This document shows positions 2,848 to 33,246 of a DNA stretch of 34,359 nt, piece by piece (the first letter of the stretch is position 1; each line of letters begins with the position of its first letter). Origin of the DNA: a virus (Duplodnaviria; Caudoviricetes); IMG/VR virus record IMGVR_UViG_3300009435_000026, positions 1-34,359 of that record; one strand, 5' to 3'. A program made the translations under genes and the position numbers. The notes below the pieces were generated by a model. That model had not been told where the DNA came from. It saw only the letters and a program-made list of their open reading frames with translations, and made no database searches.

Positions 2848-3861
2848 ATGAGTAAGCAAAACGAAGAAGTAGAAGATAAAGCCCTAGATTTTGACGTAAT
2901 GCCAGGAGCAGATCGTGTTGAAGACGACGATATGCCTAACTTGGACTTGAGTTTTGACACTGTTGCAGAGGAGCCAGAAGTAGTTGAAGAGCCAGCAGAA
3001 GTTATGGCAGAGGATGCAGAAGAGGAAGCCGCCACTGAAGATTCTGAAGAAGCCGTGGCCGAAGACGAAGGGGATGAACCCGAAGCAGAGCTCGACGAAG
3101 AATTAGAAGAGGAAGAGCCTGTAGCCGAAGAACCAAAAGCTAAGAAGAAGCCAATGGTGCCCAAGGCTAGACTTGATGAAGTCCTCGCCAAACAGAAAGC
3201 TCTGCAAAAACAGCTTGATGAAATGAATGCAGCTAATGTCAAAGACGAAGAAGCGCCTGAGACCTACGATTTTGACGCAAAAGAAGTCGAATATCAGAAT
3301 ATGGTACTGGATGGTGAGTCGGCCAAAGCGGTTGCCCTGCGCAGAGAGATCAGAAAGGCGGAACGCGCCGAGCTAGAGTTCGAAATGCGCCAAGAAATGT
3401 CGCAGACAGTCAATCAAGACCGTCAGCAGACTGCCCTTCAGCAAGCGGCAAACGCTATGGAAGAGGCTTACCCTGTTTTTGATCGTAACTCGGATACTTT
3501 TAGCGAAGATATGACTAATGAAGTCGTTGAACTGCGCGATGCTTTCATGATGAAAGGGTATGAAGCTGTAGATGCGCTGTCGAAGGCTGTTCGATATGTT
3601 GTAAAAGACAACGATCTGGGCGAGTCCGGCCAAGAAGCACCCAGTTTGGCCGGAAAAGCTGCAAAAACAGACGAGCTGTCCAAAAAGAGAGCGGCTGTAA
3701 GCCGTAAATTGAAGGCTGCAGATGCTCAACCCCCTGAACTTCCTGGTGAAAGCTCATCGATGCATGGCGAGAAGGCTTTAGATGTAGCTTCCATGACTGA
3801 AGAAGAGTTCAACGCCCTGCCTGAAGCCACTTTAAGACGTCTACGCGGCGATATTATTTAA
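2848..3861 (+). CDS. Capsid scaffolding protein (putative)
   Basis: 337 aa; very acidic N-terminus, VPKARLDEV motif then coiled coil, C-terminal MTEEEFNALPE; lies between portal and capsid; RBS AGGAG. Confidence 0.75.
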   Translation: MSKQNEEVEDKALDFDVMPGADRVEDDDMPNLDLSFDTVAEEPEVVEEPAEVMAEDAEEEAATEDSEEAVAEDEGDEPEAELDEELEEEEPVAEEPKAKKKPMVPKARLDEVLAKQKALQKQLDEMNAANVKDEEAPETYDFDAKEVEYQNMVLDGESAKAVALRREIRKAERAELEFEMRQEMSQTVNQDRQQTALQQAANAMEEAYPVFDRNSDTFSEDMTNEVVELRDAFMMKGYEAVDALSKAVRYVVKDNDLGESGQEAPSLAGKAAKTDELSKKRAAVSRKLKAADAQPPELPGESSSMHGEKALDVASMTEEEFNALPEATLRRLRGDII

Positions 3862-4034
3862 TGGCAACGGACTGCTGGGCATGTGGCGGCGAGCTTATAT
3901 GGGGAGGTGACCATGACCTCGAGGAAGATGACTCCGAAGAGTTCTCCATTATCACGAATCTAAGCTGTCCGAATTGCAACGCCTTCGTTCAGGTCTACCA
4001 CGGCCTGCGCGAGGGGTATACAGAAGAGGGATAA
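3861..4034 (+). CDS. Small zinc-ribbon protein, 57 aa (absent from the ORF track)
   Basis: ATG overlaps the scaffold stop (TAATG). Translates MATDCWACGGELIWGGDHDLEEDDSEEFSIITNLSCPNCNAFVQVYHGLREGYTEEG with two CxxC pairs, and fills the gap up to 4039. Confidence 0.75.
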   Translation: MATDCWACGGELIWGGDHDLEEDDSEEFSIITNLSCPNCNAFVQVYHGLREGYTEEG

Positions 4035-4038
4035 AACT

Positions 4039-4329
4039 ATGGCAGTTAAAAAAGACCCACGATTAGCCCGAGCAGGAGTCTCCGGCTTTAATAAGCCTAA
4101 ACGAACGCCTAGCCACGCTAAAAAATCCCACATTGTTGTAGCAAAAGAGGGCTCTACAATCAAAACAATTCGTTTTGGTGAGCAGGGCGCGTCGACCGCT
4201 GGCCAACCCAAGGCTGGTGAGTCTGAAAAGATGAAGAAGAAGCGCGCGAGCTTCAAAGCACGACACGGAAAGAACATAGCTAAGGGAAAAATGTCGGCGG
4301 CTTACTGGGCTGACAAAGTGAAGTGGTGA
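4039..4329 (+). CDS. Small basic phage protein of unknown function
   Basis: 96 aa, K/R-rich; KTIRFG, RASFKARH and AAYWA segments resemble a family recurrent in aquatic viruses; RBS GAGG. Confidence 0.75.
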   Translation: MAVKKDPRLARAGVSGFNKPKRTPSHAKKSHIVVAKEGSTIKTIRFGEQGASTAGQPKAGESEKMKKKRASFKARHGKNIAKGKMSAAYWADKVKW

Positions 4330-4529
4330 AACAGCTTGTTTTTGCCCTAATAGTGTCTGTGAGCGGAGATATAACGGATACAAAAAGCTATTGGGAGTCT
4401 TTAGAGCGGTGTCGGTGGTTTGCGCAGAAGTTAACTACCCAGGGCAGACCAGTGACGCATGCGACGCCAGTATTCGCGTACTGCGTCCCTGAGTATGTAG
4501 ATAATGAAAAAACGACTATCCATCGATAG
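4323..4529 (+). CDS. Hypothetical small protein, hydrophobic N-terminus, two Cys
   Basis: GTG start overlapping the previous stop; LVFALIVSV segment; ERC...AYCVP pair may form a disulfide. Confidence 0.6.
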   Translation: MVKQLVFALIVSVSGDITDTKSYWESLERCRWFAQKLTTQGRPVTHATPVFAYCVPEYVDNEKTTIHR

Positions 4530-4532
4530 TGG

Positions 4533-4567
4533 TTGCATTATAATATTAGCTGTACTAATATTATGAT
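4533..4567 (+). promoter_or_regulatory. Putative sigma70-like promoter with overlapping palindromic operator (site 1)
   Basis: TTGCAT (4533-4538), 17 nt, TAATAT (4556-4561); alternative -10 TATTAT 4559-4564. Inverted repeat ATAATATTAG-CTGTA-CTAATATTAT at 4540-4564. Confidence 0.65.
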
Positions 4568-4785
4568 ACGTCTATCAGTACGATAACTGGTCGGCCCGTA
4601 GCCGTAAAAAACGTACCCCTTCGCCTGCACAGGCGTGAAACCTGCCGAGGGCGACCCTCGTTAATCAACGCTAAACGTTCTTCTACACGATAGTAGAAAA
4701 ACGGATTAGCCGCTCCTTAAGTCGGCTTGTAAGGCGGCGTGTGCCGCACTAATTATTTGCCCATTTAATTATCAAGGAGCCAATC
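4568..4785 (+). ncRNA. Candidate structured cis-regulatory leader RNA of the major capsid gene
   Basis: ~220 nt ORF-free region with at least six hairpins: CAGT-ACGATA-ACTG (4576-4589), CGCCTG/CAGGCG (4622-4635), CGAGGG/CCCTCG (4646-4660), TTCTAC-ACGATA-GTAGAA (4681-4698), AGCCG/CGGCT (4708-4727), GCGGC/GCCGC (4734-4747); then RBS AAGGAG 4774-4779. Confidence 0.55.
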
Positions 4786-5937
4786 ATGGCTGTAACAAAT
4801 TTCGGTACGCTTACGGGCGACCAACTCCAAACTTGGAGCCGCGACTTCTGGAAAGTAGCTCGCAATCAATCTTTCATCAACCAATTTGCTGGTAGCGGTT
4901 CAAACGCTATGGTTCAGCGCGTAACTGAGTTGACCAAGAACAACAAAGGCACTAAAGCTAACATCACTTTGCTAGCTGACATGACCGGCGACGGTATCAC
5001 TGGTGATTTTACTCTGGAAGGCAACGAAGAAGCCCTCCGCGCGTATGACATCAGCATCGAGCTAGACCAGTTACGTTTCGCTAACCGCATCGCTGGCCGT
5101 ATGACTGACCAGAAGACTGTTGTTAACTTCCGTGAGCAATCTCGTGACGCACTTGCTTATGCAATCGCGGATCGTTGTGACCAGTTGGCATTCTTGACTT
5201 TGTCAGGTGTTGCTTACACTCACAAGAACAACGGTGGCCTTCGTACTGTAGTTGGCGGCGCTGTAAACGGACAAGAGCTTGTTGATCTTGAGTTTGCTTC
5301 TGACGTTTCTGCACCTACTGCTTCACGACACCGTCGTGTTGATGGCGACAACATCGTTGCTGGTGACACTACTGCTTTGGTAGCTGGTGACAAACTCAAG
5401 TACAAGCACATCGTTAACTTGAAAGCCTATGCTAAAGATCAATACATCCGTGGTATTCGTGGTGCTGGTAACCAGGAAACTTATCACATGTTTGTTACTC
5501 CATCACAGATGGCTAACTTGAAGCTAGATGCTGACTTCATCGCTAACGTTCGTAACGCTGGTGTACGTGGTGCTTCTAACAGCTTGTTCGCTGGTTCTTC
5601 TAGCCTGATGGTTGACGGTGTAATGATCCACGAGTTCCGCCATGTGTTTAACACTTCTGGCGCTACTACTGGCGCTTCTGGTAACGCTGGTGCAGCTGGC
5701 TACAAGTGGGGCGCAGACGCTTCTATTGTTGGCGGTCGTGCTTTGTTCTGTGGTGCTCAGGCTCTAGCTCTAGCTGACATCGGACTACCTGAAATGGTTG
5801 AAGATACTTTCGACTATGGCAACCAGTCTGGTATTTCTGTCGGTAAGATCTTCGGATTCCGTAAGCCTAAGTACAACAGTGATATCACTGGTGACGTACA
5901 GGACTTCGGCGTTATCTGCTTAGATACTGCACAGTAA
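4786..5937 (+). CDS. Major capsid protein, N4-gp56/DUF4043-like
   Basis: 383 aa; GDGITGDFTLEGNEEAL, RALFCGAQAL, DYGNQSGISVGKIFGFRKPKY, DFGVI motifs; strong RBS; followed by a terminator. Confidence 0.9.
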   Translation: MAVTNFGTLTGDQLQTWSRDFWKVARNQSFINQFAGSGSNAMVQRVTELTKNNKGTKANITLLADMTGDGITGDFTLEGNEEALRAYDISIELDQLRFANRIAGRMTDQKTVVNFREQSRDALAYAIADRCDQLAFLTLSGVAYTHKNNGGLRTVVGGAVNGQELVDLEFASDVSAPTASRHRRVDGDNIVAGDTTALVAGDKLKYKHIVNLKAYAKDQYIRGIRGAGNQETYHMFVTPSQMANLKLDADFIANVRNAGVRGASNSLFAGSSSLMVDGVMIHEFRHVFNTSGATTGASGNAGAAGYKWGADASIVGGRALFCGAQALALADIGLPEMVEDTFDYGNQSGISVGKIFGFRKPKYNSDITGDVQDFGVICLDTAQ

Positions 5938-5948
5938 GTAAGACAATC

Positions 5949-5978
5949 GCCCCCTTCTTCGGGAGGGGGCTTTCTTTT
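5949..5978 (+). terminator. Rho-independent terminator after the capsid gene
   Basis: GCCCCCTTC-TTCG-GGAGGGGGC stem with C(UUCG)G tetraloop followed by TTTCTTTT. Confidence 0.88.
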
Positions 5979-5993
5979 ATATAGGAACTAATC

Positions 5994-6395
5994 ATGAAGA
6001 TTGTAAGTAGCAAGTCATTACGAGTGACCACGATGGGCGGAACAGCCGTCTTGTTTGAAGCAGGCGTGCCTCGAGAGATGTCTGAAGAAATTGGCCTATT
6101 AGCTATACAGATGGGCGCAAAAGAATACACCACCAAATTTGTTGAAGAGGCTGCAGCTGAAGAAGCAGTGTTCGAAGAAGTAGACAAAGTAATAGATGAA
6201 CTTTTTGTCGCGCCGACAGAAATAAAGCACAACACCGTCCTCGTTACTGCTCTTGAAAGAATGATGGACGAAGGCGACCCAAAGAATTTTAAAGCTGACG
6301 GCTACCCCAAAGCCGCGGCAGTGAACAAGGTTATGGGCGAGACGATCGACACTGACGCCCGAGAAACCGCGTGGGAATCAATACTAAACTCATAG
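5994..6395 (+). CDS. Hypothetical head-associated protein
   Basis: 133 aa ORF with RBS AGGA; C-terminal NFKADGYPKAAAV..RETAW resembles a small HeH-like domain. Confidence 0.7.
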   Translation: MKIVSSKSLRVTTMGGTAVLFEAGVPREMSEEIGLLAIQMGAKEYTTKFVEEAAAEEAVFEEVDKVIDELFVAPTEIKHNTVLVTALERMMDEGDPKNFKADGYPKAAAVNKVMGETIDTDARETAWESILNS

Positions 6396-6405
6396 GTATA
6401 AGATC

Positions 6406-7101
6406 ATGGCAGTAACAGTACAAAGCGTAATAGACAGAGCGCAGACAGTGCTTCAAGACACCACTGGTGTTAGATGGCCTGTTGTTGCAGAGCTCGTTTT
6501 GTGGATCAACGACGCGCAAAGGGAGATAGCCTTATTAAAGCCCGATGCTAGTGCTACTAACGCCACAGTCACACTTGATACTGGGACCAAGCAGGATATT
6601 CCTTCTGGTGGGAACCGCCTGTTGAAAGTTGTACGTAATATGTCTGCGGCGAGTAACGGAAACGGAAAGCGAGCAGTACGTTTAGTTGACCGTGAAGTAC
6701 TTGACGCACAGACACCTGACTGGCATGACCCCACTGTTGCGGGCGATGCTGCTCATACAACGATTGTTAAGCACTACATTTATGATGAGTCCAACCCCCG
6801 CAATTTTTATGTCTATCCAGGCGTAGCTGGCAGTGCGTTTTTAGAAATAATTTACAGTTCGAATCCTGCGACTGTTGCCCAGAATGCTAACTTATCAATA
6901 CCAGATATCTTCGCCAACGCGGTCATGAACTACGTCTTGTACATGGCCTACATGAAAGACGCGGAATATGCAGGTAATGCGCAAAGAGCTAGCAGTCATT
7001 TTCAGATCTTTACTACATCTGTTACTGGTAAGGGGCAGATTGACGCCATTACTAATCCGAATATGGAACGAAGAAATCCAGCACAGCAACGGCAGGGATA
7101 A
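6406..7101 (+). CDS. Head-tail adaptor-like protein (DUF6682-like)
   Basis: 231 aa; LQDTTGVRW..ELVLWINDAQREI, FYVYP, YMAYMKDAEY motifs; podovirus adaptor position. Confidence 0.75.
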   Translation: MAVTVQSVIDRAQTVLQDTTGVRWPVVAELVLWINDAQREIALLKPDASATNATVTLDTGTKQDIPSGGNRLLKVVRNMSAASNGNGKRAVRLVDREVLDAQTPDWHDPTVAGDAAHTTIVKHYIYDESNPRNFYVYPGVAGSAFLEIIYSSNPATVAQNANLSIPDIFANAVMNYVLYMAYMKDAEYAGNAQRASSHFQIFTTSVTGKGQIDAITNPNMERRNPAQQRQG

Positions 7102-32753: not shown

Positions 32754-32762
32754 GAGAAAATT

Positions 32763-32843
32763 ATGCACGTAGAAAAAGGTAAGCAGTGTTATCTGAATCA
32801 GAAAGACAAGCCTAAGAAGAAGCCTAAGAAGAAGGTCAAGTAG
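32763..32843 (+). CDS. Lys-rich microprotein, 26 aa
   Basis: AGGAG RBS at 32752-32756; MHVEKGKQCYLNQKDKPKKKPKKKVK. Confidence 0.55.
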   Translation: MHVEKGKQCYLNQKDKPKKKPKKKVK

Positions 32844-32846
32844 TGA

Positions 32847-32872
32847 TGGTACCGTAATCGATTACGGTACCA
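32847..32872. repeat. Perfect 26-bp palindrome without spacer
   Basis: TGGTACCGTAATCGATTACGGTACCA is its own reverse complement. Confidence 0.92.
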
Positions 32873-32915
32873 AAAGCCATATCATATAAGGTATGGAATG
32901 CATTAAAAGTAAGCA

Positions 32916-32945
32916 TTATCAATCATCTACGATAGTATTTATAAT
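32916..32945 (+). promoter_or_regulatory. Putative sigma70 promoter for the small hydrophobic peptide
   Basis: TTATCA (32916-32921), 18 nt, TATAAT (32940-32945). Confidence 0.45.
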
Positions 32946-32971
32946 TGCACCTCAATCAACCAGAGGTAGTT

Positions 32972-33037
32972 ATGATACTGTACGTAATAGGATTTATACT
33001 TGTAGCACTAGGCGCGATAGCCAAGCAAGACCTGTAA
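32972..33037 (+). CDS. Hydrophobic single-TM microprotein, 21 aa
   Basis: RBS AGAGGT 32962-32967; MILYVIGFILVALGAIAKQDL. Confidence 0.6.
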   Translation: MILYVIGFILVALGAIAKQDL

Positions 33038-33086
33038 GTGTGCCAATGGCACAATAAGAAATAACCTAAACTAAAATATATAGAGT

Positions 33087-33099
33087 TATCAATAGGTTA
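33087..33099 (+). promoter_or_regulatory. IHF binding site in attP
   Basis: TATCAATAGGTTA matches WATCAANNNNTTR exactly, with an AT-rich tract upstream; lies between arm repeats and core. Confidence 0.65.
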
Positions 33100-33212
33100 G
33101 CCAACGCCAAGATAATATTAGTAATAGTATTATATAGAAGGTAACCCCCTGAAATAGAACAACTTTATCCATTACACGGTAGAAAATCCCTCTTTCTCCG
33201 CCAATCATTAGG

Positions 33213-33246
33213 GCCCCTACAGCCATTGAGCTGTAGGGGCTTTTTT
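33213..33246 (+). terminator. Rho-independent terminator downstream of the tRNA fragment
   Basis: GCCCCTACAGC-CATTGA-GCTGTAGGGGC followed by TTTTTT. Confidence 0.9.

Follow-up and report, generated by a model that had tools for sequence, protein, structure and literature searches.

A predicted chain of six compact pseudoknots ahead of the capsid gene in uncultured marine phages

In phages, the RNAs GP20-a (RF02991) and GP20-b, together with six related candidates, precede GP20 scaffold genes, as the accessible part of PMC10690425 reports. Consecutive pseudoknot arrays are known from plant-virus 3′ UTRs, and in TMV the UPD, in which three pseudoknots are stacked, acts as a translation enhancer (10.1101/2025.10.12.681957 and PMC7749636, in the portions available). 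On the tisB mRNA, whose RBS is sequestered, S1 standby depends on a 5′ H-type pseudoknot plus a single strand, according to the available text of PMC7708055. RNase E, which is used by Proteobacteria, is impeded by pseudoknots of 8-15 coaxial pairs in a graded fashion with a plateau near 15; when hairpins were swapped for the pseudoknot, protection went from 31 to 2, and plain hairpins are bypassed by the enzyme (PMC9943677, accessible sections). In the open-licence literature that we searched, we found no description of a consecutive-pseudoknot array serving as a phage 5′ leader, and the available portion of the Minerva preprint does not mention capsid leaders.

We predict that the leader of a phage capsid gene of the PF13252 family folds into a chain of six compact H-type pseudoknots at 4569-4727. 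The locus lies in the virus record IMGVR_UViG_3300009435_000026 (Duplodnaviria; Caudoviricetes), one strand of which was analysed over positions 1-34,359 (hereafter the window). Terminase, portal, a probable scaffold, the PF13252/phrog_334 capsid, virion and tail-fibre proteins and an integrase are encoded in this 34-kb window, in which no tRNA gene was found. The nearest cultured capsids are those of the Pseudomonas phages KPP25/phiR18 (52% identity), Aeromonas phage phiA008 and Acidovorax phage AP1, and Proteobacteria are the hosts of the cultured relatives. One GTDB contig carried both capsid and leader, and no host could be assigned from that contig. The elements around the leader are arranged as follows.

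2848-3861, plus strand: probable scaffolding protein gene with an acidic product, in the portal-capsid interval (weak phrog_8865 scaffold match, E 0.0096)
4533-4561, plus strand: predicted sigma70-type late promoter (-35 TTGCAT 4533-4538, 17-nt spacer, -10 TAATAT 4556-4561), same spacing in relatives
4734-4773, plus strand: variable hairpin (4734-4747), then an AU-rich single-stranded stretch
4774-4791, plus strand: Shine-Dalgarno (SD) sequence AAGGAG (4774-4779) and predicted start-codon hairpin AGCCA 4778-4782/TGGCT 4787-4791
4786-5937, plus strand: major capsid protein gene, PF13252/phrog_334 (profile matches)
5949-5978, plus strand: intrinsic-terminator-like hairpin 3′ of the capsid gene

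The scaffold gene lies upstream of the capsid gene in 56 of 60 loci, and by a crude rule a terminator-like hairpin follows the capsid gene in 81 of 190 relatives. The program-made ORF list leaves a gap of 456 nt (4330-4785). Since tblastn against the fetched loci finds homologues of a 67-codon ORF at 4326-4529 (29 hits, the most divergent at 31% identity), the genuine non-coding stretch is 4530-4785. This agrees with the non-coding leader of about 220 nt named in the original prediction, and a direct check of the letters placed all motifs quoted there where they had been reported. The 67-aa product of the ORF has a hydrophobic N-terminus, a small ORF at 3861-4034 encodes a 57-aa protein with two CxxC motifs, and the gene content between scaffold and capsid promoter varies freely across relatives. 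A palindrome (ACTATC-CATC-GATAGT, 4516-4531) at the end of the 67-aa ORF, just 5′ of the -35 box, is unconserved in most relatives. Elsewhere in the window, a 491-nt AT-rich gap 5′ of the integrase gene (32754-33244) holds palindromes and a GC-rich hairpin with a T-run; it is possibly an attachment site or a promoter region.

The region 4560-4800 folds with a z score of -2.94 (1 of 200 shuffles was as good). Its most conspicuous letters had been read as independent hairpins with exposed loops, two of them identical and offered as protein-binding sites, accompanied by related CG-rich units:

4574-4591, plus strand: ATCAGT-ACGATA-ACTGGT
4676-4703, plus strand: CGTT.TTCTAC-ACGATA-GTAGAA.AACG
4603, 4634, 4659 and 4669, plus strand: units of CG plus an A-rich run

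In 196 non-redundant leaders we counted 295 hairpins with an NCGAHA loop, whereas dinucleotide shuffles averaged 23.2, the reverse strand had 40 and capsid coding sequence 6. Of 55 diverse relatives, 33 carry ACGATA twice, and 52 keep the CGA core at both sites. When the relatives are compared, however, it becomes apparent that most of the supposed loops are second stems of pseudoknots. In the model, which was drawn by eye from divergent leaders, each hairpin loop pairs with a flanking strand, and the ACG of each ACGATA would pair with an upstream CGT instead of lying exposed. Two module types can be distinguished. Type A (knots 1 and 5, the two ACGATA sites) has a 3-bp CGT/ACG stem, a second stem of 5-6 bp and an ATA loop, whereas type B (knots 2-4, the former CG-plus-A-rich units) has a 4-5-bp stem with CG at its start and end, a second stem of 2-3 bp and a TAAAA-like loop.

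4569-4591, plus strand: pseudoknot 1, type A; S1 4569-4571/4580-4582 (CGT/ACG), S2 4574-4578/4587-4591, loop 3 ATA(A)
4592-4613, plus strand: pseudoknot 2, type B; S1 4592-4595/4601-4604, S2 4597-4599/4611-4613, A-rich loop 3
4622-4645, plus strand: pseudoknot 3, type B; S1 4622-4625/4632-4635, S2 4627-4629/4643-4645
4646-4670, plus strand: pseudoknot 4, type B; S1 4646-4650/4656-4660, S2 4652-4653/4669-4670
4676-4698, plus strand: pseudoknot 5, second copy of type A; S1 4676-4678/4687-4689, S2 4681-4686/4693-4698
4703-4727, plus strand: pseudoknot 6; S1 4703-4705 (GGA)/4714-4716 (TCC), S2 4708-4712/4723-4727

Knot 2 adjoins knot 1 without a linker, as knot 4 adjoins knot 3, and both junctions are gap-free in 55 of 55 leaders. 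Loop 3 measures 3-10 nt with 50-71% A and 4-22% G+C, the A-rich composition expected of H-type pseudoknots. The hairpin at 4734-4747, on the other hand, differs or is absent in distant relatives.

The whole leader together with TTGCAT-N17-TAATAT is conserved between divergent flanks in the 80 closest of 420 loci with a relative. Further scans yielded 475 leaders no shorter than 250 nt; without near-duplicates 196 are left, with capsid identities of 42-100%. The leader belongs to a widespread group of uncultured marine phages. In a plain MAFFT alignment of 55 leaders below 86% identity, 91.8% of 2414 cells pair and 35 of the 45 pairs change on both sides, while slid controls gave 31-41%. The central claim, that a structured RNA with conservation and covariation sits in cis ahead of the capsid gene, was thus borne out. 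The 18 crossing pairs alone are paired in 89.7% of cells, with 78 double-change cells vs 26 after shuffling. Since G-U combinations (97) outnumber A-C (41), an RNA of the plus strand is favoured.

Taken knot by knot, the picture is uneven. In S1 of knot 1 the third pair is UA in 40, CG in 9 and GC in 1 of the 55 leaders and the second pair is GC in 53 and UA in 2, and all five S2 pairs change on both sides. All four S1 pairs of knot 2 do so as well, and its S2 consists of two near-invariant CG pairs and a weak third; this crossing stem pairs in 87% of cells and varies little (z 1.8, 41/1000). Knot 3 has both-side changes in all three S2 pairs (11, 9 and 19 sequences) and 14 compensatory events on the tree. 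The S2 of knot 4 extends to 3-5 bp in relatives. S2 of knot 5 covaries; its S1 pairs in 91% of cells and is near-invariant within the clade (z -0.3), and the case for it comes from its identity with that of knot 1 and from the family-wide table of type-A crossing pairs. In knot 6, the third S1 pair is AU in 28, GC in 11, GU in 7 and UA in 2 of 55, and S2 changes on both sides in five of five pairs.

The family-wide table was obtained with an anchor test blind to complementarity, in which 269 of the 295 NCGAHA hairpins have a CG 8-13 nt upstream. The base that follows this CG can make a crossing pair with the one that precedes the CG of the loop, and the two are Watson-Crick partners in 242 (T:A 171, C:G 57, G:C 10, A:T 4) and G-U in 10; complementarity thus holds in 252 of 269 modules, compared with a permutation mean of 140 and a maximum of 165 in 20,000. 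The type-A module is present in 160 of the 196 non-redundant leaders. Permuting loops against tails in 81 leaders, stratified by identity, gave z scores of 6.5, 1.8, 9.0, 8.2, -0.3 and 2.7 for knots 1-6; such permutations take the leaders as unrelated, and the structure was drawn from the same set of sequences. An all-against-all G-test with a tree-based null (89 sequences) placed ten model pairs among its top 11. Significance was reached by four pairs (rate-aware null) or seven (uniform null), and by no crossing pair; 4627-4645, the best of that kind and paired in 100%, ranked 11th with E 2.9-4.7. Counted by helix, compensatory events on the tree are clear for both stems of knots 1 and 3 and borderline for the crossing stem of knot 4 (p 0.04), and in the same alignment those of knots 2, 5 and 6 were not significant. 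Accordingly graded, knots 1, 3 and 4 appear well supported and knot 6 moderately so, whereas the crossing stems of knots 2 and 5, mostly paired but near-invariant, are tentative and do not show covariation within the clade.

A simple descriptor finds knots 1-5 as the only such cluster in the 34-kb window. Applied to the relatives, it counts 4.9 knots per leader in close ones and 1.6-1.7 in distant ones; shuffles give 0.3-0.4, coding sequence 0.3-0.7 and the reverse strand 0.8-2.8. Distant relatives have 1-4 modules and close ones mostly 5 (by descriptor), which fits an additive device. In one capsid leader (L232:1150-1449) the module block is duplicated internally, showing how module number can grow. 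Conservation, covariation, position and modular repetition are what these leaders show.

The mutually exclusive pairings of the original prediction fared less well. CAGG at 4630 is complementary to 4622-4627 and to 4641-4644; CCTG at 4641-4644, however, belongs to the partner strand of the 4627-4629 loop, and this loop pairing, which is compatible with the 4622-4635 stem, scores z 9.0 vs 1.0, with no covariation, for CAGG with CCTG. For the second switch (GCCG at 4709 and 4743, CGGC at 4735), the 4709 x 4735 alternative is strong in 15 of 81 leaders vs 58 of 81 for the own partner. Its z of 3.1-3.3 stems, on inspection, largely from distant members without the 4734-4747 hairpin; it is as strong as the own partner in 11 of 81, and in the close clade this pairing may form. 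Further candidates were rejected. Nested alternatives (the 5′ end with 4611-4613, 4569-4571 with 4591-4593, the base of knot 5 with ACGG, and loop 6 with the SD) had 0 compensatory events, kissing of the two ACGATA loops had z -1.4, and pairings across modules had z -0.8 to 1.2.

Outside the family, blastn of the leader against 50,697 phage records gave 24 short chance matches, none covering more than 12% of the query. A pattern scan of viral contigs for knots 1-2 found full elements before this capsid; the other matches were coding look-alikes, many in one prophage gene. With a strict descriptor we found 0 knots before the KPP25 capsid and the TP901-1 scaffold gene, one each in phiA008, A118, KLEP18-1 and Bcep22, two in AP1 and, before P22 gene 8, 1-2 weak ones; epsilon15 lacks a leader. 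A looser pattern of two CGTAAAA units was followed in 120 viral loci, 80 of them with full flanks: 15 fit the descriptor in at least one unit, and 18 have an SD-led ORF behind. Five of these 18 ORFs are scaffolds by PHROGs and one more by Pfam below cut-off, one belongs to the PF13252 capsid family and one encodes another capsid without the knot geometry; among the six scaffold cases three fail the strict descriptor and one is the A118 sequence. Similar units thus stand 16-26 nt 5′ of scaffold genes in unrelated phages, which suggests that the module recurs at head genes.

In the Listeria phage A118 (L637:4511-4590), as in L653, L658 and L669, two CG-stem/TAAAA units fill the pre-scaffold gap and can be drawn as tandem pseudoknots; in this Firmicutes phage the units are intergenic, next to the SD and not behind a detected promoter. 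Two phages showed features of another kind. The capsid gene of Burkholderia phage Bcep22, a distant relative of the present one, has a CsrA-like gene directly 5′ (L636:2172-2462) and a 95-nt leader in which the loop of a hairpin contains GGA; phage-encoded Csr control of capsid synthesis is possible there. Aeromonas phage phiA008 carries a 9-nt stretch (L083:2388-2397) exactly complementary to the capsid start region, about 110 nt upstream of it and close to the predicted 5′ end.

The knot array begins about 7 nt 3′ of the conserved sigma70-type -10 box. We looked for the promoter pattern in 138 leaders with at least two knots and found it in 79, in 66 of which knot 1 starts 7-13 nt past the -10 box, so knot 1 would be the 5′ end of the transcript; in the present phage, we place the start at about 4566-4568. 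A simple promoter scan of the sequence did not list TTGCAT-N17-TAATAT. Parts of 4400-5900 are included in 14 metatranscriptome runs. In the 8 runs examined of 21 listed, RNA-library contigs cover 4593-4717, 4688-5040 and 4653-6500. The leader is therefore joined to capsid sequence in RNA libraries, which give neither strand, level nor start site and may contain carried-over DNA. No listed piece covers 4330-4592 in these 8 runs, and as a run of unknown kind lacks this part likewise, the missing 5′ coverage is uninformative on the start site.

Between array and gene, knot 6 ends 28-63 nt 5′ of the AUG in 78 of 81 leaders, with a variable spacer, so that the array itself leaves the SD uncovered; pairing of the knot 6 loop with the SD shows no covariation (z 0.1; 81 leaders). 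The AT fraction is 0.75 at -35 to -13. The start codon is predicted to lie in a hairpin of its own (-6.8 kcal/mol locally). Capsid start regions fold at -4.9 vs -1.3 kcal/mol for the next gene (142 pairs, p 1e-19). Natively, the pairing amounts to -4.14 in the 32 leaders with a second codon other than GCN, vs -2.35 with swapped starts (0 of 300); the covariation signal comes from these 32, which include related clades. Seven leaders have GAC at +3 to +5, and all seven have GTC in the spacer. The hairpin shifts in step with codon 2 across the family (GCC/GGC, GTC/GAC and others), and such a start-codon hairpin covarying with codon 2 would be new here. In the 81 closer leaders it shows no covariation (z -0.3), and 61 of 160 ATGGC leaders lack the GCC partner.

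What might such a leader do? Our preferred reading, to which we give a probability of roughly 0.45, is that it would act as a 5′ barrier to mRNA decay with a ribosome (S1) loading function. Transcription from a host sigma70-type promoter would begin 1-3 nt ahead of knot 1, so that hardly any 5′ end would be free. With about 15 base pairs each, the coaxial blocks expected from knots 1+2 and from knots 3+4 would match the size at which RNase E scanning is maximally blocked in E. coli, and by this analogy geometry and position would fit an obstacle to RNase E scanning. A long-lived mRNA could ensure that capsid protein outnumbers portal, terminase and tail proteins, as head assembly needs. As in tisB, the 30S subunit would be held via S1 at the knots and the AU-rich stretch and could then open the weak start-codon hairpin. 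The start site, folding in vivo, the decay barrier and S1 loading are inferences. Against this reading, six knots in fixed order exceed what a barrier needs, since protection levels off near 15 coaxial pairs, and in a leader that is purely constitutive and made for maximal output one would hardly expect a conserved start-codon hairpin, which fits regulation. Moreover, S1 prefers a less folded pseudoknot, as the available part of PMC7038950 describes.

The main rival is a feedback operator, which we regard as rather unlikely. Free scaffold or unassembled capsid would bind the repeated knots, with several copies attached at a time, and block 30S/S1 loading, so that the start codon stays hairpinned and capsid synthesis tracks assembly. 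Autoregulation by the P22 scaffold is a precedent. Repeated modules with invariant CG pairs, their fixed order, the start-codon hairpin covarying with codon 2, the upstream scaffold gene and the similar units before scaffold genes of unrelated phages would all suit such an operator, but the array ends well short of the AUG behind a variable spacer, the same module occurs in a plant-virus UTR, and the leader here precedes the capsid and not the scaffold gene. The 96-aa basic protein, which had been suggested as a ligand, would seem excluded as a required partner, judged by gene content: its gene is missing in 26 of 60 loci, and all 26 keep at least three knots.

Less probable still is a leader that enhances translation in the first place, with the knots as S1/30S standby sites that open the start-codon hairpin and stabilisation as a secondary effect. 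The three parts of tisB, a 5′ pseudoknot, an AU-rich single strand and a structured RBS, are present. However, the start hairpin, at a mean of about -5 kcal/mol, is weak and often lacks its GCC partner, and related units occur in Firmicutes phages such as A118, whose hosts depend little on S1. The enhancing effect of the TMV UPD pseudoknots (10.1101/2025.10.12.681957, accessible part) speaks for this alternative.

Quite improbable in our view is a processed stand-alone RNA (a packaging or assembly RNA or a protein sponge) or a ligand-sensing riboswitch. The compact multi-domain fold might suggest either, but, against the stand-alone RNA of the original prediction, a terminator-like hairpin lies between the knots and the SD in only 4 of 81 leaders, and the RNA-library contigs run from leader into capsid gene. 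The riboswitch version draws on a weak look-alike of SAM-II (RF00521) at S1 and loop 3 of knot 4 (11.5 vs 36 bits), in which 21 model positions, the ligand-pocket segment in P1, are replaced by 3 nt. As to a Csr/Rsm sponge, ACGGAT at 4701 resembles a Csr site, but this single GGA is variable (kept in about 30 of 55) and paired in knot 6. The least probable reading is a nascent-RNA antiterminator like HK022 put that lets RNA polymerase read past the 5949 terminator and on into the tail genes. For this we found no positive evidence beyond a promoter-proximal position, the terminator-like hairpin after the capsid gene and one RNA-library contig spanning 4653-6500, while put is built differently, the A118 units lie next to the SD, and partial termination after a capsid gene is ordinary.

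Hundreds of capsid subunits are needed per portal ring, which is usually credited to promoters and terminators. The leader would point to an additional layer of RNA structure in capsid output and suggests a testable job for the orphan GP20 motifs. If the decay barrier holds, it would by analogy be a natural example of the obstacle type that stops RNase E in engineered reporters, and it is a compact, modular candidate mRNA stabiliser. Since standard folding programs miss the array (RNAalifold recovers the nested halves only), such leaders are probably under-catalogued. A wider generalisation, which we put forward as speculation and consider doubtful, is that tailed phages share a head-assembly control RNA, in which arrays of CG-based mini-pseudoknots sense free scaffold or capsid multivalently. 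Scaffold or capsid would then compete with S1 for the knots and decide on the opening of the start hairpin, GP20-a/b and the six-knot leader would be one class, and the autoregulation of head proteins, long observed, would gain a sequence-defined operator.

The leader matches no Rfam family: there were 0 matches at gathering score in the window and 0 at E<=10 over 3800-4900 (1.1 kb), and a scan of 176 nt gave four weak matches of 11.5-13.1 bits. The preQ1-I riboswitch is not among the Rfam matches at E<=10. Type III antitoxin repeats are near-identical tandem pseudoknots before a toxin endoribonuclease gene; here the units differ in sequence and type, and the downstream gene encodes a capsid. 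The T4 gene 32 operator has an AU-rich stretch after its pseudoknot and before the RBS. It resembles the present leader as a pseudoknot before the RBS and is bound by gp32 (PMC10690425, accessible part), which also lends support to feedback, but it is a single knot with a ssDNA-binding protein as ligand and does not serve a capsid gene. The tisB +42 mRNA shares a 5′-terminal H-type pseudoknot, a single strand and a sequestered RBS (PMC7708055, same sections as above); it has, however, one knot, made by processing and antisense-controlled, versus six knots and a much weaker RBS hairpin here. HK022 put is likewise a structured RNA just behind a phage promoter, but forms a 73-nt V of two long stem-loops that binds the beta′ zinc domain (PMC9378689, as far as available), an architecture other than six short knots.

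DNAVirus_3698 comprises 85 nt and 180 marine and freshwater sequences, 37 of which lie no more than 25 nt from a capsid gene labelled N4-gp56 family; this capsid and that of TP901-1 bear the label as well. Compared by description only, DNAVirus_3698 may be part of this leader (PMC10690425, accessible part). Part of the fold may already be shown in the supplement of PMC5737381 or in the alignment files of PMC10690425.

The plant-virus UPD (RF01111, SBWMV2 UPD-PKk) contains a 3-bp CGU/ACG stem followed by AUA, as in knots 1 and 5, and is the best weak match at knot 5 with 13.1 bits vs 35, too low for membership. TMV PK1-3, in the accessible descriptions, are likewise consecutive compact H-type pseudoknots stacked in sequence, but the UPD lies in the 3′ UTR of eukaryotic RNA viruses and adjoins a tRNA-like structure. 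The resemblance is likely convergence on a stable fold, and the presence of the type-A letters in the plant-virus model suggests that the conserved letters are structural and not a code for a phage protein. GP20-b (RF03003) matched weakly at knot 2 with 12.2 bits vs a gathering score of 36.2, again too low for membership. A loose search placed it once in the 34-kb record, at knot 2, and once in A118, at the scaffold leader, with both scores far below cut-off; the same search also matched 9 of 14 control genomes. GP20-b spans 62 positions with two units versus six and precedes a scaffold gene, not a capsid gene with its own promoter. Like the present element, however, it is the leader of a phage head gene, and its consensus consists of two short stems, each with a UAAAA tract; the six-knot leader is a tandem pseudoknot leader akin to GP20-b.
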